A DNA stretch of 64,000 bases from the NCBI RefSeq assembly GCF_046716805.1, contig NZ_JBKJWH010000085.1, forward strand, positions 5,901-69,900. The letters are read 5' to 3'. A model generated the notes under the pieces. The model made no database searches and was not told where the DNA came from. It worked only from the letters and a program-made list of their open reading frames with translations. Source of the stretch: Mycetocola sp. Its GTDB lineage: Bacteria > Actinomycetota > Actinomycetes > Actinomycetales > Microbacteriaceae. Each line of letters begins with the position of its first letter. Positions within the stretch are counted from its first letter, which is position 1. Made by a program: the position numbers and the translations under genes. Positions 4,278-15,219 of this stretch are shown piece by piece.

Positions 4278-4360
4278 TACCGGTGGTGGGACTCGAACCC
4301 ACACGTCCTTTCGAACAAAGCATTTTGAGTGCTCCGCGTCTGCCATTCCGCCACACCGGC
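4278..4360 (-). tRNA. tRNA-Leu (anticodon CAA)
   Basis: The reverse complement reads GCCGGTG-TG-GCGGAATGGCAGACGC-G-GAGCA-CTCAAAA-TGCTT-long variable arm-GTGGGTTCGAGTCCCAC-CACCGGT-A. It has a 7-bp acceptor stem, a GGTTCGAGTCC T-arm and the long extra arm typical of Leu. CCA is not encoded. Confidence 0.9.
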
Positions 4361-5788: not shown

Positions 5789-8455
5789 GTGGTGTCGGAC
5801 AACGAAAAGCCTACCCTCCTCGTCATTGACGGTCATTCCCTAGCATTCCGGGCGTTCTACGCGCTCCCGGTCGACAGTTTCTCGACGAAGGACGGGCAGC
5901 ACACCAACGCCATCCATGGCTTTCTCGCGATGCTCATCAACCTCCTTCGCGACCACAAACCGACGCACATCGCGGTGGCTTTCGACATCTCACGCTCCAG
6001 TTTCCGCACCCGCGAGTACCCGGAGTACAAGGGCACTCGGGGCGAGACCCCTTCAGAGTTCATCGGCCAGGTTCCGCTCCTGCAGGACGCCCTTGCGGCG
6101 ATGAACATCACCACCATCTCGATCGAGGACTACGAGGCCGACGACATCCTCGCCACGCTCTCCGTCCAGGGTAAGGAGCAGGGCTTCCGCGTTCTCGTCG
6201 TCTCCGGCGACCGCGACACAATCCAGCTCGTCAACGACGACGTCACCCTGCTTTACCCGTCGCGCATGGGCGTCTCCGACCTCACCCTCTACGACGCCGC
6301 CAAGGTGATGGAACGGTACGGCATCCAGCCGCACCAGTACCCAGAGGTCGCCGCGCTCGTCGGCGAGACGAGCGACAACCTCCCCGGCGTCCCCAAGGTC
6401 GGCGAGAAGACCGCGGTGAAGTGGCTGAACCTGTACGGCTCGCTCGACGGCATCCTCGAGAACGCCGACAAGATCGGCGGCAAAGTCGGCGAGAGCCTCC
6501 GCGAGCACAAAGACAACGCCATCCGCAACCGCAAGCTCAACCACCTGCTCACCGACGTGACTCTGCCGGTGACCCTCGACACGCTCGTCAAGAAGCCCAT
6601 CGATCAGCAGGCGGTGCGCGACATCTTCGGCCGGCTCGAGCTGCGGACCATGCTGGACCGCCTGTTCAAGGCGGAGGGCGTCGATGAGGAGAGCGAAGCA
6701 TCCGTTTCGCCGTCCGCCGGCGGACTCGCCAGCCCGGTGCCGCAGCAGCTTCTCGACGAGGAGCTCGGCGCCTGGCTCACCCGCGCTGTCGCCGCCCACC
6801 CGAACGGTCTCGGCTTCACCGTCGACGTGCACGAAGGAAAGCCCGCAGGCATGGGCATCTCCACGCCAACGGAGTGCGTGGCCGTCGGCTGGCTTCCCGG
6901 CCGCGCCGACTACGCGCCGTTCGAGGACTGGCTGGCCAGCCCTGCACCGAAGCTGATGAACGACGCCAAGCGGCAGCTCAAGGCGCTCAAGAACGCCGGA
7001 CTTCCGTTCGACGGGCTCGCCTATGACACTCACGTCGCCGGCTGGCTGCTCCGCCCCGGCGGCCAGGACAAGACCCTCTCCGACCTCGTCAGCCGCTATC
7101 TCGACGAAACCCTCCCGGTCTCCGACCCGAACCAGCTCGTCCCGGTGAACGAACCGGCATCCGCACCCGTCGAGGCCTGGTACACGCTCCGGCTCGTCGA
7201 TGCACTCAACGAGGCGCTCGACTCCGGCTCCCGAAACGTGCTCACCTCCATCGAGGTGCCCACCCTGCTCACGATCGTCGACATCGAACTGCGCGGCGTC
7301 ACCGTCAACCACACCCAACTCACCGAATTGAGTGCCGAACTGGCCGCGAAGGCCGCCGACCTGGCATCCCGGGCATACGCGATCATCGGGCACGAAGTAA
7401 ACCTCGGCTCGCCGAAACAGCTGCAGGACGTGCTGTTCAACGAATTGGACATGCCGAAGACCCGCGCGAACAAGACCGGCTTCTCGACGGATGCCGGTGC
7501 GCTGGCCGACCTGCAAGCGTCGAACCCGCATCCTTTCCTCGGGCTCCTCCTCGAACACCGTGACGCGTCGAAGCTGCGCCAGATCGTCGAGACCGTCGAC
7601 AAAGCCATCGGGAGCGACGGCCGGGTCCACACCAGCTACGTGCAGACCGGCACCACCACGGGCCGGATCTCGTCGACCGACCCGAACCTCCAGAACATCC
7701 CCGTTCGCACCGAAGAGGGACGCCGCATCCGGGCATCGTTCGAGGCAGGTGCCGGCTACGAGACGCTGCTCACCGCAGACTACTCACAGATCGAAATGCG
7801 CATCATGGCGCACCTCTCGGGCGACGAAGGGTTGATCGAGGCATTCCGTTCAGGTGAAGACCTGCACCGGTTCGTCGGTTCCCGGATCTTCGGTGTCGAC
7901 CCGGCGGATGTGACGAACGAGATGCGAACGAAGGTCAAGGCGATGTCGTACGGCCTGGCCTACGGGCTCAGTGCGTTCGGGCTGTCGAAACAATTGCGGA
8001 TCGACTCCTCCGAGGCGAAGGCGCTCATGAGCGACTACTTCGCCCGTTTCGGCGCCGTGCGCGACTACCTCCGCAATGTCGTCGAACAGGCCGTCGAAGA
8101 CGGCTACACGACAACCCTCTTCGGCCGCCGCCGGCCGTTCCCAGACTTGAAGAGCCCCAACCGGGTGCTGCGCGACAACGCGCAACGAGCAGCCCTCAAC
8201 GCTCCCATCCAGGGCTCCGCCGCCGACATCATGAAGATCGCCATGATCAACATCGAAGCCGACACTGCGGCTCAGAATCTGGGGTCACGCATGCTCATGC
8301 AGGTGCATGATGAACTGATCTTCGAAGTGGTCGAGGGGGAGTGGGACGCCCTCGAGGCGATTGTCCGCACCCGGATGGCGGGCGCCGCGGACCTGACCGT
8401 GCCGCTCGACGTCCACGTCGGTCGGGGTCACAACTGGGACGCCGCCGCGCACTGA
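5789..8455 (+). CDS. polA: DNA polymerase I
   Basis: 888 aa. The N-terminal 5'-3' exonuclease shows LLVIDGHSLAFRAFYA. The polymerase motifs are RISSTDPNLQNIP, ADYSQIEMRIMAH and QVHDELIFE. The start may instead be the GTG at 5792. Confidence 0.97.
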   Translation: MVSDNEKPTLLVIDGHSLAFRAFYALPVDSFSTKDGQHTNAIHGFLAMLINLLRDHKPTHIAVAFDISRSSFRTREYPEYKGTRGETPSEFIGQVPLLQDALAAMNITTISIEDYEADDILATLSVQGKEQGFRVLVVSGDRDTIQLVNDDVTLLYPSRMGVSDLTLYDAAKVMERYGIQPHQYPEVAALVGETSDNLPGVPKVGEKTAVKWLNLYGSLDGILENADKIGGKVGESLREHKDNAIRNRKLNHLLTDVTLPVTLDTLVKKPIDQQAVRDIFGRLELRTMLDRLFKAEGVDEESEASVSPSAGGLASPVPQQLLDEELGAWLTRAVAAHPNGLGFTVDVHEGKPAGMGISTPTECVAVGWLPGRADYAPFEDWLASPAPKLMNDAKRQLKALKNAGLPFDGLAYDTHVAGWLLRPGGQDKTLSDLVSRYLDETLPVSDPNQLVPVNEPASAPVEAWYTLRLVDALNEALDSGSRNVLTSIEVPTLLTIVDIELRGVTVNHTQLTELSAELAAKAADLASRAYAIIGHEVNLGSPKQLQDVLFNELDMPKTRANKTGFSTDAGALADLQASNPHPFLGLLLEHRDASKLRQIVETVDKAIGSDGRVHTSYVQTGTTTGRISSTDPNLQNIPVRTEEGRRIRASFEAGAGYETLLTADYSQIEMRIMAHLSGDEGLIEAFRSGEDLHRFVGSRIFGVDPADVTNEMRTKVKAMSYGLAYGLSAFGLSKQLRIDSSEAKALMSDYFARFGAVRDYLRNVVEQAVEDGYTTTLFGRRRPFPDLKSPNRVLRDNAQRAALNAPIQGSAADIMKIAMINIEADTAAQNLGSRMLMQVHDELIFEVVEGEWDALEAIVRTRMAGAADLTVPLDVHVGRGHNWDAAAH

Positions 8456-8484
8456 ACTCCGTGACGGGCGGGCGCCACTGTCCT

Positions 8485-10173
8485 ATGCTCGACTCCATGA
8501 CTGAACCCACGCGCGCCCCGTCTGCCGTCGATGCCATCGCCGAGGACTGGGTCGACACGCTCGTCGACCTCGACCCGCTGGTCGGAACGTACATCGGACG
8601 CGCTGAGGCGAACAGCAGGTTCGGCGACTTCTCCCCAGCCGGGCATGACCGGTACGTCGCCGAGGCGAAGCGGACACTGGCCGCGCTCGAGGCGGCACAG
8701 CCCGCCGACGGCATCGATGAGGTCACCAAAACGGATCTTGCCAGCGAGCTGCGCCTCGACCTGGAGAGCGCGGAGGCCCAGCTTCACCTGCGCGACCTCA
8801 ACGTCATCGCATCGCCGGCTCAGGGCATCCGGGAGATCTTCGACATCATGCCGACAGCGACCGTCGACGACTGGGACGACATCTCCACACGGCTGAAGGC
8901 CCTCCCTGGAGCCGTCGCCGGCTACATCGAGACCCTCCGCCTCGGCATCGAACGCGGAGTCACCCCCGCCAAGCGGCAGGTGCGCGAGGTCTTCGAACAG
9001 GCCAAGAAGTACGGCGCAGACGAAGGATTCTTCCTCGGACTGGCCGCCACGGCATCTCCGGCTGAAGGCCAGCTTCCAGCCTCCCTTGCCTCCGACCTCT
9101 CAGCGAACGCCGGGCAGGCCGCCGTCGCCTACCGCTCCCTCGCCGATTTCCTCGCCCATGAGCTTGAGCCGGTCGCCCAGGAACAGGATGCCGTCGGCCG
9201 CGAACTCTACGCCCTTCAGTCACGCAGGTTCCTCGGCGCCACCATCGACCTCGACGAAACGTACGAATGGGGCATCGGCGAGCTCGCCAGCATGGTGGAC
9301 GAGCAGGAATCCATCGCCCGTGAAATCAAAGCCGGCGCGAGCGTCGAGGAAGCCATCGCGTTCCTCGACGGCGAGCCCAGCCGCAAACTGCACGGCACGG
9401 ACGCACTTCAGAAGTGGATGCAGGAAACCAGCGACCGCGCGGTCGCCGAACTCGGGAAGAGCCATTTCGACATCCCCGAAGAGATCCGGACGATCGAATG
9501 CATGATCGCTCCCACCCAGGAGGGCGGCATCTATTACACCGGCCCCACAGATGACTTCTCACGCCCGGGCCGGATGTGGTGGTCGGTGCCCGAGGGTGTC
9601 ACCGAGTTCGATACCTGGCGTGAACTCACGACCGTCTACCACGAGGGCGTCCCCGGTCACCACCTGCAGATCGGCCAGGCGGTGTACAACCGGGCGAAGC
9701 TCAACACCTGGCGGAGGCAGCTGGCCGGAACGTCAGGCCATGCGGAAGGCTGGGCGCTTTACGCCGAGAGGCTGATGGAGCAGCTCGGTTACCTCGACGA
9801 CCCCGCAGACCGGCTCGGGATGCTCGACGGTCAGCGGATGCGTGCGGCGCGCGTGGTGCTCGACATCGGTGTGCACCTCGGCAAACCGCACCCGGACGGC
9901 AGCGGGACGTGGACCGCAGACGACGCGTTCGCGTTCCTCGGCAAGAACGTGAACATGAACGAGGGCTTCGTGCGCTTCGAGGTCAACCGCTATCTCGGCT
10001 GGCCGGGCCAGGCCCCGTCGTACAAGGTCGGACAGCGGATCTGGGAACAGCTCCGCGACGAATACGCACGCCGCGAAGGTGACGCGTTCGACATCAGGGA
10101 GTTCCATAGGAAGGCGCTGGACCTCGGCGGCGTCGGTCTCGACACCCTGAAGCGCTCCCTCCTTGCCGGCTGA
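8485..10173 (+). CDS. DUF885 domain-containing protein
   Basis: ORF 8341-10173 trimmed to the first ATG after the polA stop (MLDSMTEPT...). The HEGVPGHHLQ metallopeptidase-like motif and overall length are typical of DUF885. Confidence 0.85.
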   Translation: MLDSMTEPTRAPSAVDAIAEDWVDTLVDLDPLVGTYIGRAEANSRFGDFSPAGHDRYVAEAKRTLAALEAAQPADGIDEVTKTDLASELRLDLESAEAQLHLRDLNVIASPAQGIREIFDIMPTATVDDWDDISTRLKALPGAVAGYIETLRLGIERGVTPAKRQVREVFEQAKKYGADEGFFLGLAATASPAEGQLPASLASDLSANAGQAAVAYRSLADFLAHELEPVAQEQDAVGRELYALQSRRFLGATIDLDETYEWGIGELASMVDEQESIAREIKAGASVEEAIAFLDGEPSRKLHGTDALQKWMQETSDRAVAELGKSHFDIPEEIRTIECMIAPTQEGGIYYTGPTDDFSRPGRMWWSVPEGVTEFDTWRELTTVYHEGVPGHHLQIGQAVYNRAKLNTWRRQLAGTSGHAEGWALYAERLMEQLGYLDDPADRLGMLDGQRMRAARVVLDIGVHLGKPHPDGSGTWTADDAFAFLGKNVNMNEGFVRFEVNRYLGWPGQAPSYKVGQRIWEQLRDEYARREGDAFDIREFHRKALDLGGVGLDTLKRSLLAG

Positions 10174-10228: not shown

Positions 10229-11944
10229 TCAGCGCTGCACAGCGGTTGCGGCGTCCGGCGAGCCCACGTTCCACTCCTGGTATCCCGAGCACCACGCGGA
10301 CTCGGACGACACGATGACGACGCCTGGGTACCCGTCGAGCATGGCTTCGAGCTGGCCCTGGGCCGCGGAATCAAGCCGACCGTCGATGTCGTCAAGCAGC
10401 AGCAATGCCGGGGATCCGAGCATCGCACGGGCCACCATGAGCCCCGCGACCTGTGCCGCGTCCAGCGGAATCCCGCCGCGGCGCAGCTGCGTTTTCGCAC
10501 CGTGATCCAGCGAATCGATGCACAGCCCCAGCCGCCCCGCGACTGCAAGGGCCAGGTCCCGGTTCGCGTCTGGGTGCCGGTACCGCAGCGCGCGCAGCAC
10601 GGTGCCGCGTTCGGGCACCATTGCGGAGTATGCCGCGCCGATGAGCCGGCGTCGTTTCTTCTCTCCCACGGCGCCCGGGATCACCCCGGCCACGACATAG
10701 TCCCATGCCCGGCCTGCAGCGTCCTGTCCCAGGTCACCGACGATGGGGCCCGCGTCCGTGCGCGCGGTGGCCAGTATGTTGAACAGCTCGCCGCGCCGCC
10801 GCGCATCGCCGCCGACCATGCGAATGCGGGCGCCCGGTTCGGCGTCCAACTCAGGGATGGGGTGCGAGTCGATCTCGACTCCGCACAGCCACACCCCGCC
10901 GACGGGTCGGGCCGGGCTCAGGGTCTCCGGTCGCGAAACCATCCTGATCGTTATGTCCTCTCCGGACCTCAGCGTGGTTTCCTCGTCGAGCAACGGGGCA
11001 AGAATGCGTCGGGCGGCCCGGTAGTTCTGCCGGTATTCCACGATGCGCCCCCACTCACCCACTGGCGCCGCGCACAGTCCCAGTAGGGTCAAGGCCGTGG
11101 CGATCTGTCCGGCGTCCAAAGCCACGCTCCTGGCGATGACCACCGCAATGGCGGCGGCCACCAGCGGCATGCCCAGGGAGCAGGCGCGCAACACACCGGC
11201 CAGGCGCGCCCGGTGTACTGCCGCGTCCATAACCTTATGGCCGCTGACTTCCACCCGTGCCAGCTCTCGTGCCACGCCGCCGGACGCGACCACCGCGGAC
11301 GAAGCGGCGACGGTGTCGGCGATACGCGCGGCAAGGTTGCCGCGGTGCCGCCGCAGAACCCGGGCACGTTGAAAGGCGGGTCTGGCGAGCAGGAGCAGCG
11401 CGGCGCCCAGCACCAGCACCGGAAGCCCAAGCGCCGGCGCCAGAAGGGGATTCAGCACCCAGAGGCCGACCATCGAGATGAGAACCAGAGGGATACCGGC
11501 CAGCATCGGGGCGATTCCCTGAGCCACCCAGTTGCGCACCGAGGACAGGTCGTTGCTCGCCCTGGCCACGGTGATGCCCACAGAGGGGGCCTTCCGTGCC
11601 AGCAGCGAGTGAGAGATCAGCGAAACGCGCAACTGTGCCACGTAATGCTGTCCGAGCTTCTCGGCGAACACCCGCTCCAGGTATCGACCGTAGCCGAGCA
11701 CCAGAATCAGCGCGCCGATGCCGGCGACGACGGGGAGCTTCGCGCCGCCGTTCACGAGGCTTCCGACCAGGAGGGCGATCGTCACACCAAGCGCACCGCA
11801 CAGTGTGGCAATGGCCAGCAGCGCGGCAAACAGCGCACGGCGCCTCCCGGTGATGAGCTTCGGCAGCCGCGCTGCGCGACCCCGAATACCGGTGTCCTTC
11901 GCGGAATCCACCGGTTCTGCCGCACCTTCCCGCGTGCCGCCCAT
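10229..11944 (-). CDS. ABC-exporter-like membrane protein (six TM helices) with fully degenerate nucleotide-binding domain
   Basis: ORF 10229-12016, with the start placed at the ATG at 11944, downstream of the preceding gene's stop. About six hydrophobic helices are followed by an NBD-like region in which each motif is altered:
- Walker A is VGGDARRRGE
- the signature is GGIPLDAAQ
- Walker B is LLLLDDID
- the H-loop position is VVIVSSES. Confidence 0.75.
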   Translation of the reverse strand: MGGTREGAAEPVDSAKDTGIRGRAARLPKLITGRRRALFAALLAIATLCGALGVTIALLVGSLVNGGAKLPVVAGIGALILVLGYGRYLERVFAEKLGQHYVAQLRVSLISHSLLARKAPSVGITVARASNDLSSVRNWVAQGIAPMLAGIPLVLISMVGLWVLNPLLAPALGLPVLVLGAALLLLARPAFQRARVLRRHRGNLAARIADTVAASSAVVASGGVARELARVEVSGHKVMDAAVHRARLAGVLRACSLGMPLVAAAIAVVIARSVALDAGQIATALTLLGLCAAPVGEWGRIVEYRQNYRAARRILAPLLDEETTLRSGEDITIRMVSRPETLSPARPVGGVWLCGVEIDSHPIPELDAEPGARIRMVGGDARRRGELFNILATARTDAGPIVGDLGQDAAGRAWDYVVAGVIPGAVGEKKRRRLIGAAYSAMVPERGTVLRALRYRHPDANRDLALAVAGRLGLCIDSLDHGAKTQLRRGGIPLDAAQVAGLMVARAMLGSPALLLLDDIDGRLDSAAQGQLEAMLDGYPGVVIVSSESAWCSGYQEWNVGSPDAATAVQR

Positions 11945-11961
11945 CCGTGCACCTGCAGCGC

Positions 11962-13116
11962 TCACAGCAAGGCGGCGCGCACCGGGATCAGGGCGGCGGC
12001 GACTTCGGGACGGCACAGGTCGTAGGTGACGATGACGGGGACGTCGATCCAGGCCGAGGCCTCCGCGGCGGCCAGGGGCGAAGCGGTGAGCAGGCCGGAG
12101 ACGGCTGCCACCGGCACCGCGGCGTCATGCAGCAGGTCCAGTCCGGCGCGGGCGCCCAGAGCATCCTGAGCTGCGAACACGACGGTGTCCACATAGGTGG
12201 CGAAGAGCGGGTCGCGCAGCAGTCTGGAGGTTTCGCCCTGGTAAAGCCCGTCGGCGATCTCGATGACCACCACATCGGCGCCAAAGGCAGCCTGCTCGTC
12301 GATCATCGCGGCGAGCAGGTTGCGAACCTCTTCGTAGGCGAGCTTGAAGGTGGTGGGGTATCCGAAGTCGGTGAAGTCGCAGACCGGAAACGCACCGGCG
12401 TCGATGAACAGGTTGGGGTCGTTGCCCGCGCCAGTTCCGGTCGCCTTGCCCGCTGCCACAGTGAGACCGGCGTTGGACAGCCCGTTGACCAGGCAGGCGA
12501 GCGTGGTGGACTTGCCCGAGTTCATCGATGTGCCCAGAACGGCGATGACCGGCGGGCGCCGGGAGCCCAGCGCGGCGACCGCGGCCAGTGACGGGCTGCC
12601 GACCTGCAGGGGAGAGAAGTCGCGCAGGTTCACTACGCCCTCCCTGGTTGCCAGGAGGCCGATCGGTTCGATCGCGGTGGCGGCTCCGATCGAAGCGTGT
12701 GTCTCGATCACGTATCCGGCGAGCCCGCCGCCTGCGACGAGGTGGCAGGGCTCGAGGGAATCCGGCACGTGTGCCAGAAACTGGTCAGGGGCGTAGCGGT
12801 TGCCGTATGCGACCATGATCTCCTGGCCGACGAACAAGAGCTGGCGGCGGGAGGTCGGAGATTCCAGCCGCGTGTGCTTGCCCAGTTCTGTGACGCGCGC
12901 AATGACGACATCTCCGGCTTCGGGGTGAACCTCGGACCCGGCCAGCATGTGGAAGTCCTCAGGTCGCTTGGTGAATTCGGTGGCGACAAAACGCGTGGTG
13001 TAGGCGGCCCGGACCTTCACCGCCCGCTCCGCCCCAATCTGTACGCGGGTGTATCGGCCGTCAGTAACCTCACGTGCATCGAGGTCATCGGTGTCGAGGC
13101 TGGGGCTGATGCTCAT
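11962..13116 (-). CDS. P-loop NTPase of unknown function (BioD/CobQ/DUF1611-like GT-x4-GKS motif) with N-terminal beta-rich domain
   Basis: ORF 11962-13209 trimmed to the ATG at 13116, which is preceded by GAAGGA. Walker A is VLGTSMNSGKSTT and the Walker-B-like segment is ADVVVIEIADGL. The stop lies 17 nt upstream of the next gene's start. Confidence 0.7.
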   Translation of the reverse strand: MSISPSLDTDDLDAREVTDGRYTRVQIGAERAVKVRAAYTTRFVATEFTKRPEDFHMLAGSEVHPEAGDVVIARVTELGKHTRLESPTSRRQLLFVGQEIMVAYGNRYAPDQFLAHVPDSLEPCHLVAGGGLAGYVIETHASIGAATAIEPIGLLATREGVVNLRDFSPLQVGSPSLAAVAALGSRRPPVIAVLGTSMNSGKSTTLACLVNGLSNAGLTVAAGKATGTGAGNDPNLFIDAGAFPVCDFTDFGYPTTFKLAYEEVRNLLAAMIDEQAAFGADVVVIEIADGLYQGETSRLLRDPLFATYVDTVVFAAQDALGARAGLDLLHDAAVPVAAVSGLLTASPLAAAEASAWIDVPVIVTYDLCRPEVAAALIPVRAALL

Positions 13117-13256
13117 ATCGGTAATCCTTCTCAGTGCCAGGAACTCCATGCCGCCCCGCTTCGGCCGCAAGCACAATGCCTTGCATTGCTCCCCAGCCTG
13201 CATCGCCAAAGTAAGCGGCAGGTGAACAAACCACGGATGTACTGTTTCGGGATTAC

Positions 13257-13391
13257 GACTGGGAGCAGCTCCGGGACGAGTACTCGCGCCGCCAGGGCGA
13301 CGCCTTCGACATCAAGGAGTTCCACAAGAAGTCGCTGGACCTCGGCGGCGTCGGTGTCGACACCCTGAAGCGCACCCTGCTGGCCGGCTGA
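13257..13391 (+). pseudogene. orphan 3'-terminal fragment (44 codons plus stop) of a second DUF885 gene copy
   Basis: It translates to DWEQLRDEYSRRQGDAFDIKEFHKKSLDLGGVGVDTLKRTLLAG*. The intact gene end at 10039-10173 reads IWEQLRDEYARREGDAFDIREFHRKALDLGGVGLDTLKRSLLAG*. I saw no homology upstream of 13257. Confidence 0.75.
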
Positions 13392-13479
13392 ACGGCCTCC
13401 CGCCCGGTCGCCTCGTCGACGTCCCCACCGCTGGCATGGTGCCAACGGGGTGCTTCATCAACCTGAGACGGTCCAGGAG

Positions 13480-13961
13480 TCAGAAACGCCGGGAGGTGGT
13501 GGAGATGGGACCTGTCTTATCGGCAAACTTGTGGAGCTTGCCATCCTCGGCCGCGCGGAGGCGCGGATGGAACTCGACAATTTCAGGGCACTCGTCGAGC
13601 AGGAAGCGCCGAAATGATGTCCAGGTCAGTACTCCTACGTCGGTGTGGCCACCACGTTCCAGACGCCGAACACCGAGAGCGCGAGGTAGAAGACGAAAGG
13701 CGGAATGTCGTGGGCGATCACGAACAGGGCGGTGAAGGCCGCGGTCGCACTGAGCAGCAAGACTCCGATCCACGTCTCATGCTAAAGGCTGGCCATACCG
13801 AGTAGTGCCAGGCCCGGAAGTGTGAGCCAGACGTACCCCAACCACGGCCCCGCCGGAAGTTCGCCTCGGGCGAATTCCTCGATCCGCCGACCACGACGCG
13901 CACAGGCGACAGCCCATAGCGCCGCTCCCACGAACAACGCGGTTCCGGCGGCAGCTGCCAT
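13480..13961 (-). pseudogene. disrupted small membrane protein gene (in-frame TAG, probable frameshift)
   Basis: From the ATG at 13961 the frame reads MAAAAGTALFVGAALWAVACARRGRRIEEFARGELPAGPWLGYVWLTLPGLALLGMASL, then TAG (13782-13784). It continues in frame as HETWIGVLLLSATAAFTALFVIAHDIPPFVFYLALSVFGVWNVVATPT to a stop at 13635-13637. A further start-less reading frame (..TSFRRFLLDECPEIVEFHPRLRAAEDGKLHKFADKTGPI..) runs on to 13480 in another frame. Confidence 0.4.
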
Positions 13962-14298
13962 TCATCGGTCATGTACCACTCAACTCAGTGACCTGATCTT
14001 TGATGGCGACGCTACGCTGCGGCGTGCCATGACTCAACACCCAGCGTGCACGGTCAGCGCCATCCGCTCCTTCACCGGTGCTCCATTCCGGGGGGTTCGA
14101 CGATGCCGGCGGGTGTCGACGGTGCAGACTGTGCCGACGGGCGCACGTCACGATCGCCGCACCCGTCATCGGTAGGCTCTACAGGTACGGCGGAGCATTC
14201 ACCTACTCCGTCGGCAGCGAGGCGGATGTCGTGAGCTAACACGTTGCCATCGCAGGCATCCGACCGCCCCCGTCCGCCCCTGAACCGGAGACCGCTGA

Positions 14299-15219
14299 AT
14301 GACTCAGATCGCCCTCGTCAGCCATGGCCTGACCGATCCCGCTCTTCGTGATGACGACCTTCCGCTCCTCGTCGACGGTCTCACGCAGGCGGGCCTGCCG
14401 GCGCAGGTGGCGCTCTGGACCGACCCGTCGGTGCGCTGGGAGGACTTCGGCCTCGTGGTTCTCCGTTCGCCGTGGGACTACCCCGACGCCGCTCCGGAGT
14501 TCCTTGCCTGGCTCGACCGCGTGGCATCCGTTGTTCGCGTGCTGAACGCGCCGGCACTGGTCCGCTGGAACATCGACAAGACGTACCTCCGCGAAATCGC
14601 CGCCGCCTCCACCGTTCCGCTGGTGCCGACGACGTTCTGCACCACGCTCGGCGAAGTGGTGACAGCGCTGGCAGTCCTTCGGCCGGGTCGCGTTGTGATC
14701 AAGCCGTCGGTGTCCGCGGGTTCGCAGAACACCGGGTTGTTCGAAGCCGGCGATCCCTCCGTGCTCCTCCTCGCACGGCAGATCCTCGCCCTCGGCAAGG
14801 TTGTGATGGTTCAGCCGGCGATCGACGGGGTGCAGGAGCGCGGGGAGCGTGCCCTCCTCTACTTCAACGGCCGGTTCAGCCACGCGATCTCCAAGGGCCC
14901 GCTGCTGGCCGTGGGCGGGGGACTGCTCGGCGGAACGTACGTCGAGACGATCCACTCGATCAACGCCGAGCCGGCCGAACGTGCCGTCGGTGACGCCCTC
15001 ATCGCTGCGGCCGTCACGGTCCTCCTCGGGCGCGGGTTGTCCGAATCCGATGCCGTTCCTCTTTATGCCCGGATCGATATCGTCGACGACCCCGTCCTCG
15101 GGCCGCTCGTGCTCGAAGCCGAGCTCTTCGAACCGTCGTTGTTTCTCGGCTCCGCGCCGGATGCCGTCGGCAATTTCGTCGCGGCCGTGCGGGAGCGACT
15201 CGCTCCCGAGCCGGTTTGA
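14299..15219 (+). CDS. ATP-grasp domain-containing protein (RimK/glutathione-synthase-like ligase)
   Basis: 306 aa. It has a pre-ATP-grasp N-terminal part and the segments VVIKPSVSAGSQNT and ARIDIVDD...LEAELFEPSLF, characteristic of ATP-grasp folds. The antisense 350-aa ORF is Arg/Gly-rich. Confidence 0.8.
   Translation: MTQIALVSHGLTDPALRDDDLPLLVDGLTQAGLPAQVALWTDPSVRWEDFGLVVLRSPWDYPDAAPEFLAWLDRVASVVRVLNAPALVRWNIDKTYLREIAAASTVPLVPTTFCTTLGEVVTALAVLRPGRVVIKPSVSAGSQNTGLFEAGDPSVLLLARQILALGKVVMVQPAIDGVQERGERALLYFNGRFSHAISKGPLLAVGGGLLGGTYVETIHSINAEPAERAVGDALIAAAVTVLLGRGLSESDAVPLYARIDIVDDPVLGPLVLEAELFEPSLFLGSAPDAVGNFVAAVRERLAPEPV

Follow-up and report, generated by a model that had tools for sequence, protein, structure and literature searches.

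A conserved pairing of a SIMIBI-type P-loop protein with an ABC-exporter-like membrane protein in Mycetocola sp. and other bacteria

Two adjacent genes on the minus strand of a Mycetocola sp. contig, encoding a P-loop protein and a membrane protein resembling ATP-binding cassette (ABC) exporters, were characterized within a window of 64,000 nucleotides (nt), the whole stretch of DNA that was analysed. The first gene of this cassette (11962..13116; minus strand), defined from its open reading frame (ORF), homologues, an AlphaFold2 model and the ratio of non-synonymous to synonymous substitution rates (dN/dS), runs from an ATG at 13116 to a TGA at 11964-11962 and encodes 384 amino acids plus the stop; an original prediction made from the DNA letters had correctly found this ORF but gave 385 residues, a figure that includes the stop codon. 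A longer TTG-initiated form extends to 13209, and the ATG at 13116 is the likely start because the common N-terminus of the closest homologues begins MSIS or MSIT. The P-loop protein has 1995 homologues at E<=1e-3, the top non-self match being 84% identical, and its gene shows a dN/dS of 0.17-0.20 against four Paeniglutamicibacter-type homologues, so that a chance ORF can be dismissed. The second gene (10229..11944; minus strand) encodes 571 amino acids, predicted from Pfam, NCBIfam, hydropathy and homology to comprise a six-segment, type-IV-exporter-like transmembrane domain (TMD) and a degenerate nucleotide-binding domain (NBD). Its ATG at 11944 lies on the same strand 17 nt past the stop of the P-loop gene, as had been predicted, the spacer (11945..11961) being read directly from the sequence. 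The only Pfam match of this ABC-like protein was ABC_membrane (PF00664; 3.6e-7, 30.6 bits vs a cut-off of 28), with no match to ABC_tran (PF00005); a hydropathy scan revealed six hydrophobic membrane segments, and NCBIfam produced weak CydC, MsbA and type I secretion matches far under their cut-offs. The NBD, at approximately residues 331-571 (10229..10954; minus strand), was delimited by sequence, family alignment, motif counts and dN/dS, and reads GGDARRRGE at the Walker A site, with a signature-like RRGGIPL and a Walker B of LLLLDD.

Both cassette genes are bracketed exactly by two 133-nt direct repeats that are 87% identical and were located by repeat search and alignment. The first copy (10041..10173; plus strand) forms the 3' end and stop of an intact DUF885-like gene (ORF 8341-10173), whilst the second (13259..13391; plus strand) is an orphan remnant of that same 3' end and aligns with the first, a shared TGA included. 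The cassettes of the closest relatives resemble this one at the nucleotide level (77-81%) over 10249-13233 only, and they are flanked there by EamA and TetR, which are unrelated genes. Repeats and similarity boundaries alike agree with the earlier proposal that the two genes are the whole of an inserted block. The transferable unit can be defined as the two genes plus approximately 120 nt upstream because of these similarity boundaries and the changed neighbours in the relatives; the upstream non-coding stretch carried with the cassette (13117..13258; minus strand), across which similarity continues up to 13233, presumably contains the promoter and ribosome-binding site. Promoter and terminator scans detected neither a sigma-70 consensus promoter upstream of the P-loop gene nor a terminator-like site on the cassette strand, and Rfam identified no riboswitch or other RNA near the cassette. 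As judged from the repeats, the cassette apparently came in through a recombination event in which the end of the DUF885-like gene took part; the 133-nt repeat looks like an insertion scar, and the divergence of its copies suggests that one arrived with the foreign DNA. The window sequence was found in soil-metagenome DNA runs only and in no RNA runs.

A scan limited to one genome per species gave more than 561 loci; the analysis used the best 80, every one of them from Actinomycetota. Represented among these are Paeniglutamicibacter, Glutamicibacter, Arthrobacter, Micrococcus, Citricoccus, Janibacter, Nocardioides, Promicromonospora, Corynebacterium, Arcanobacterium, Brevibacterium, Prauserella and Luteococcus, together with members of the Dermabacteraceae. 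In 79 of these loci the next gene downstream, on the same strand, encodes an ABC homologue, the sole exception being a contig that ends 211 nt past the P-loop gene. The junction in these relatives, measured from the P-loop stop to the longest ABC ORF, is often -4 or -1 nt or else a gap of less than about 25 nt. When neighbouring ORFs were clustered, the P-loop and ABC genes were the only universal ones, the next commonest cluster occurring in 22 loci, and pairwise identities of the P-loop and ABC proteins co-vary (Pearson 0.90). The genes flanking the cassette in the window (DUF885-like, ATP-grasp, polA and rpsA) are not found near cassettes elsewhere, with the exception of polA approximately 7 kb away in one locus. 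The two families clearly co-occur widely, and the suggestion that the two genes constitute one unit is borne out by their adjacency and by the lack of a third universal gene. A histidine kinase and a response regulator were also noted within 3-5 kb of the cassette in about 20 actinobacterial loci.

For the family outside Actinomycetota, 1.8 billion cluster representatives were searched exhaustively with a profile, which matched 1672 clusters at E<=1e-3, 485 of them at E<=1e-30. Named members outside Actinomycetota are found in Cyanobacteria (Crocosphaera, Chlorogloeopsis, Nostoc), Desulfosarcina, Chloroflexales and Competibacteraceae, with further members in Acidobacteriota-type metagenome-assembled genomes (Pyrinomonadaceae, Polarisedimenticolaceae), and the named distant members are labelled DUF1611, MobB or hypothetical. 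Metagenomic loci surrounding distant members (best 80 of more than 546 kept; G+C 36-73%) encode P-loop homologues of 33-36% identity, and an ABC homologue is present at 30 of the 37 that have at least 4 kb of downstream sequence. A distant ABC partner, an intact exporter, could be aligned over its full length with the ABC-like protein of the window (24% identity, E 1e-23), the two having family-specific TMD motifs in common.

Two architectures recur among the distant loci, one in which the P-loop and ABC genes are often followed by a gene for a polyhydroxyalkanoate (PHA)-depolymerase-like alpha/beta hydrolase, and one in the order P-loop, M36-like HExxH peptidase, PGA_cap protein and ABC. Both are corroborated by complete genomes. 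In that of Chlorogloeopsis the order is two-component system, P-loop, ABC, a 172-amino-acid protein, PGA_cap, OprB porin and M36, and in the complete Competibacteraceae genome it is histidine kinase and sigma-54 regulator, P-loop, ABC and Esterase_PHB. The two-component genes lie directly upstream of the pair in both cases (Chlorogloeopsis fritschii, L165, 6539-8645; Competibacteraceae, L167/L168, 5971-8783), and some P-loop homologues (P0415, P0455) are fused to a receiver domain; together these hint at regulation by phosphorelay. The alpha/beta hydrolase also occurs as a fusion partner of the P-loop protein, in either order (P0168 and P0214; P0245), and is encoded after the ABC gene in 10 loci; loci with one or the other arrangement include L121, L145, L147, L153, L162 and L167. 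The hydrolase is probably cytoplasmic, as the representative inspected has no obvious signal peptide. The PGA_cap protein shows a weak NCBIfam match to the lasso-peptide epimerase MslH. Such associations with a hydrolase, a peptidase and a PGA_cap protein, as read from gene content, point to a cargo that may be a peptide or another hydrolysable small compound. Amongst 28 long family representatives there was no P-loop-ABC fusion protein, and the added regions, where identifiable, were either the alpha/beta hydrolase or a transposase fragment. In a separate observation, the metagenomic P-loop gene calls P0174, P0206 and P0209 read through into fragments of Mutator-family transposases, and at L154 (1595-3139) the P-loop gene is directly followed by one for an rve integrase; insertion sequences seem to land repeatedly at the P-loop gene junction.

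An AlphaFold2 model of the P-loop protein, built from 24 homologues, had a mean predicted local distance difference test score (pLDDT) of 89.7 and a predicted template modelling score (pTM) of 0.87. The model comprises a nearly all-beta N-terminal half and an alpha/beta P-loop C-terminal half, consistent with the beta-rich N-terminal half described in the original prediction. The N-terminal beta-rich domain (approximately residues 16-175; 12592..13071, minus strand) was delimited by DSSP analysis of the model, conservation and absence of a Pfam match, with Pfam finding nothing in residues 1-185, DUF1611_N (PF17396) included. Modelled alone, this domain reached a pLDDT of 91.8, and Foldseek against the PDB gave no fold match (best E 0.57, template modelling (TM) score <= 0.24). 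The C-terminal domain (approximately residues 186-378; 11983..12561, minus strand) was assigned as a SIMIBI-type P-loop nucleoside triphosphatase (NTPase) domain from Foldseek against the PDB and from sub-threshold Pfam and NCBIfam matches. PDB sequence searches with the P-loop protein, as single sequence or profile, returned nothing below E 0.09. With the full model, the top 50 Foldseek matches were all SIMIBI proteins, either FtsY/SRP54/SR-alpha or dethiobiotin synthetase. FtsY and SRP54 had the lowest E-values (approximately 1e-5) but superposed poorly, with a root-mean-square deviation (rmsd) of approximately 10 A, and the best superposition was with dethiobiotin synthetase (E 1.6e-5 to 1e-4, TM(target) 0.55-0.57, rmsd 5.2-6.2 A, approximately 220-245 columns). 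The modelled C-terminal domain thus has the predicted fold of a SIMIBI NTPase, the nearest being dethiobiotin synthetase, and the protein combines a canonical Lys-Ser/Thr Walker A with fold matches exclusively to SIMIBI proteins, as expected of this class.

The motifs noted previously in this domain were all recovered. The GT-x4-GKS Walker A (VLGTSMNSGKSTT) occupies residues 193-205 (window 12505-12540) as read from the sequence, its core GTSMNSGKST at residues 195-204 (12505..12534; minus strand) being delimited by sequence and homologue alignment. It takes the form G[TS]SMNSGK[ST] in 75 of 75 actinobacterial P-loop homologues, with G, GK and T invariant across the family. The Walker-B-like strand VVVIEIADGL is present at residues 282-291, and the conserved segment VVVIEIADG at residues 282-290 (12247..12273; minus strand) is followed by a conserved QGET; residues E286, A288, D289, G290, Q293 and T296 are invariant in the alignment of closest homologues and conserved family-wide. 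Conservation was scored on 106 cluster representatives plus the P-loop protein of the window, down to 33% identity to the latter. Conserved C-domain positions comprise the Walker A, a Lys in a GK-TGTGxGxD loop, DFTDxG, and the E-x-ADG strand followed by Q-x-ET, and those of the N-domain comprise GDxVxARV, RYAPDQ(F), (A/G)GG and an invariant His, with the R, Y, D and Q of RYAPDQF also invariant. The signature Lys of the deviant Walker A (KGGxGK[ST]) is absent, the window protein reading LGTSMNSGKST, and none of the conserved columns of the family alignment contains the GTP-specificity motif [NT]KxD. The P-loop protein is itself occasionally degenerate, as in the distant homologue P0258, where Walker A is lost (GTSPGAASNAS vs GTSMNSGKST).

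BioD/CobQ-type enzymes are recognised by a Walker A preceded by GT, a Lys that follows strand 2 and an acidic E-x-x-(D/G)G strand, and the original prediction had likened the Walker A and B variants to those of BioD, CobQ and DUF1611. Profile searches agree with this likeness, in that only DUF1611_C, AAA_26, CbiA and MobB matched, each below threshold. For the window protein, DUF1611_C scored 18.8 bits (E 0.0011; gathering cut-off 25 bits) with residues 187-222 aligned to profile positions 11-46 of 201, AAA_26 scored 13.6 bits (cut-off 27), CbiA 11.9 bits (cut-off 25.4) and MobB TIGR00176 15.7 bits (cut-off 76.2). In distant members AAA_26 and CbiA scores rise to 21-22 bits, and MobB PF03205 matches in those members only, at 22-24 bits against a cut-off of 26.6. 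True membership of DUF1611, BioD or MobB was rejected, every Pfam and NCBIfam score being sub-threshold, and, in agreement with the earlier description of the protein as unassigned, no family assignment reached a curated threshold. Homologues carry the automatic NCBI name 'DUF1611 domain-containing protein'; since the DUF1611_C score is sub-threshold and covers just 36 residues around the P-loop, this name is best read, at the level of sequence, as a marginal P-loop match and no true family assignment. Amongst the defence models of PADLOC-DB 2.0 the P-loop protein had no match and the ABC-like protein scored 13.6 bits, which is chance level.

The state of the NBD differs between lineages. Distant ABC partners have an intact Walker A in 32 of 36 cases, most of those also with LSGGQ and hhhhDE, whereas G-x4-GK[ST] occurs in 0 of 69 actinobacterial partners and hhhhD[DE] is missing in 66 of the 69. 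In an alignment of the actinobacterial NBDs the Walker A region is unconserved, and what is kept is a Q-loop-like ERGT..RA.RYR.PD, a signature-like LRRGGEPL and the hydrophobic strand of Walker B. On a neighbour-joining tree of the P-loop proteins, those of Actinomycetota, the window protein among them, form a monophyletic clade whose partners all have a motif-less NBD, its sister clade being paired with intact NBDs. Partners of a separate P-loop clade (L119, L134, L159) have also lost the motifs, and in a low-G+C metagenomic lineage (L152, 9121-10182; plus strand) the partner after the P-loop gene is a 353-amino-acid ABC_membrane TMD with no NBD, directly followed by a gene for an extracytoplasmic function (ECF) sigma factor. 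Loss of the NBD motifs, or absence of the whole NBD, thus falls on three or more separate branches of this tree, with the P-loop partner kept each time. As other phyla pair the P-loop family with intact-NBD homologues, the partnership predates the loss of NBD motifs; an intact NBD is the ancestral state, and judging by motif content its chemistry appears to have been lost at least three times with retention of the P-loop gene. Since the P-loop gene was kept on all of these branches, the ATPase of the NBD is apparently dispensable in the module, and a supply of energy or chemistry in trans stays a live hypothesis. Against the same four Paeniglutamicibacter-type homologues, dN/dS was 0.30-0.32 for the motif-less NBD and 0.18-0.22 for the TMD, and the ABC-like ORF was intact in 69 of 69 actinobacterial sequences examined, from many genera. 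On this sequence evidence the actinobacterial NBD is under purifying selection and not decaying neutrally.

A functional link between the two genes is strongly supported by these sequence comparisons. The original prediction had proposed a functional module in which a soluble NTPase serves a membrane protein that has lost its own ATPase; the pairing is supported by comparative genomics, but the comparisons do not point in the first place to an NTPase that exists to replace the lost activity, the partnership being older than the loss. The P-loop protein is likely enzyme-like, because its Walker A, the Lys of GK-TGTG, E-x-ADG and the polar residues of the N-domain are invariant. The best-supported reading, to which we give an even chance, is that the two genes form a conserved, horizontally mobile operon encoding a cargo-activating NTPase and its dedicated translocator; here we infer that the P-loop protein is catalytic and touches its membrane partner, as well as what the cargo is and which way it travels. 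A cytoplasmic BioD/CobQ-like SIMIBI NTPase with an unclassified beta N-domain would here work with a membrane protein of type-IV-exporter fold. The P-loop protein would spend ATP or another NTP at the cytoplasmic face on phosphoryl activation or ligation of a cargo, probably a peptide or other small carboxylate, and the ABC-fold protein would then carry the activated cargo across the membrane. In most phyla the translocator retains its own ATPase motifs. In Actinomycetota the NBD, devoid of Walker A, the catalytic Walker B residue and the H-loop, would be kept as a structural domain, leaving the P-loop protein as the sole nucleotide-hydrolysing component, and directionality would come from P-loop chemistry or direct coupling and not from NBD dimerisation.

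Comparison with known systems shows likenesses in some respects and sets the pair apart in others. BioD/CobQ enzymes phosphorylate a carboxyl or carbamate oxygen, leading to C-N bond formation. The P-loop protein resembles BioD, CobQ and CobB in the GT before Walker A, the Lys on the loop after the second strand and the acidic hhhhE-x-x-(D/G)G strand, and resembles BioD further in giving the best C-domain superposition (TM target 0.55-0.57, rmsd 5-6 A), but unlike BioD and CobQ it has an additional 175-residue beta domain with no known counterpart and is tied genetically to an ABC-fold membrane protein. With DUF1611 (PF07755/PF17396) it has in common a GT-x4-GK[ST] Walker A, the SIMIBI fold and the weak DUF1611_C match over 36 residues; it differs in the sub-threshold score, the absence of a DUF1611_N match and an N-domain that is all-beta in the model, whereas DUF1611_N is described by Pfam as Rossmann-like. 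On the transporter side, the partner TMD resembles CydDC, MsbA and LssB exporters in matching ABC_membrane, and intact relatives score best against LssB, CydC and MsbA-related models; nevertheless all scores are far under curated cut-offs and actinobacterial members have no ATP-binding motif. The ABC partner is accordingly best placed in a separate subfamily, because every NCBIfam score falls far below the curated cut-off. SbmA/BacA provides a precedent for a type-IV ABC-exporter fold that functions without ATP hydrolysis by its own NBD, and the TMD-only partner at L152 and the actinobacterial clade with motif-less NBDs throughout recall this arrangement; SbmA, though, is not known to have a dedicated soluble P-loop partner, and the motif-less NBD considered here is kept and under selection.

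A number of observations weigh against activation of a cargo for a dedicated translocator. Of the 37 distant loci, 7 have no full ABC homologue, one encoding a TMD only and six none. Accessory genes (hydrolase, M36, PGA_cap and HTTM) were sought at the actinobacterial cassettes and in the window and were found at L078 only, as HTTM and one unnamed protein. A conserved upstream ORF resembling a precursor peptide was likewise sought and none was found, upstream clusters being regulators or lineage-specific genes. An exporter with a motif-less NBD has no obvious power source, and it is conceivable that the translocator acts as a channel, importer or sensor instead. The idea of BioD-like chemistry is suggested by resemblance of fold and motif, with no curated threshold reached. 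Finally, Walker motifs were scored with regular expressions on longest ORFs, and the P-loop tree is a simple neighbour-joining tree without support values.

Of the alternatives, supply of energy in trans, as suggested in the original prediction, fares best, although we consider it unlikely. Here the P-loop protein would dock on cytoplasmic domains of its ABC-fold partner and drive or gate transport through cycles of NTP hydrolysis, as ArsA energises ArsB; in Actinomycetota it would have fully replaced the motif-less NBD. NBD motifs or the NBD itself are gone on at least three branches of the P-loop tree with a P-loop partner in every one, the L152 locus retains a TMD alone beside the P-loop gene, and the motif-less NBD, conserved at a dN/dS of approximately 0.3 with its Q-loop-like and signature-like stretches, could serve as a docking platform. 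In addition, the ABC ORF overlaps the P-loop stop by 1-4 nt in many relatives, as is typical of translationally coupled subunits. The ArsA-ArsB pair is similar in that a soluble SIMIBI-class NTPase gene adjoins a membrane transporter without a working ATPase of its own, but in ArsA the Walker A is deviant and the architecture duplicated and MinD-like, and ArsB lacks an ABC fold, features not shared by the window pair; the Walker A of the P-loop protein is GT-x4-GKS rather than the ArsA/MinD-type KGGxGK[ST]. The competent NBD of the ABC partner in most phyla also implies a role for the P-loop protein that does not depend on replacing the NBD, and the invariant polar residues of the N-domain and the hydrolase fusions resemble an enzyme and not a motor subunit, with P-loop-ABC fusion seen in 0 of the 28 long representatives.

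Distinctly less probable is a regulatory switch of the kind represented by MobB or signal recognition particle (SRP)-type GTPases, in which the P-loop protein would govern how the membrane protein is assembled, targeted or gated and leave cargo untouched. Such a role would fit the top Foldseek E-values of FtsY and SRP54, MobB as the strongest Pfam match in distant members (22-24 bits vs 26.6), the receiver-domain homologues P0415 and P0455 and the two-component systems upstream in one cyanobacterial and one gammaproteobacterial genome. It is difficult to reconcile with the lack of [NT]KxD among conserved columns and with the rmsd of approximately 10 A for SRP GTPases against 5-6 A for dethiobiotin synthetase, and it leaves the large conserved N-domain and the hydrolase fusions unexplained. 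That adjacency is meaningless here and the ABC-like gene a decaying relic or pseudogene beside an unrelated enzyme gene is very improbable and was rejected, for although the catalytic motifs of the NBD are gone and the cassette was horizontally acquired, the ORF is intact in 69 of 69 sequences, dN/dS is low in both TMD (0.18-0.22) and NBD (0.30-0.32), and adjacency is kept in 79 of 80 loci while the surroundings change.

No description of a pairing of this P-loop family with an ABC exporter was found in the literature searched, and an ABC-fold system that has its own SIMIBI partner and repeatedly loses its NBD looks undescribed. More speculatively, and with considerable doubt, the pairs may represent an undescribed ABC-fold transport class. 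Its obligate cytoplasmic partner would be a BioD-like SIMIBI NTPase carrying a novel beta domain, which in several lineages would be the sole nucleotide user and would have replaced an NBD that decayed or was lost, apparently independently, along three or more branches. ATP hydrolysis by their own NBDs is the defining trait of ABC exporters; if the soluble NTPase supplies chemistry or energy, the ABC fold would gain a new mode of coupling. A function would then also be at hand for a widespread family now mislabelled 'DUF1611' or 'MobB', with a domain unmatched among solved structures. The module is small and portable and is present in the culturable genera Glutamicibacter, Micrococcus, Corynebacterium and Nostoc, and is therefore directly testable.

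Two further observations concern the window outside the cassette. Approximately 900 nt between the DUF885 remnant and an ATP-grasp-like gene (14299-15219), at 13392-14298, contain no ORF above approximately 117 amino acids and nothing detected by Rfam, with a weak third-position G+C signal at approximately 13520-13760; this segment may hold a small or a degraded gene, or may be intergenic and unusually long. A tRNA gene at 4278-4360 (minus strand) is the sole Rfam match at gathering threshold in the whole window.

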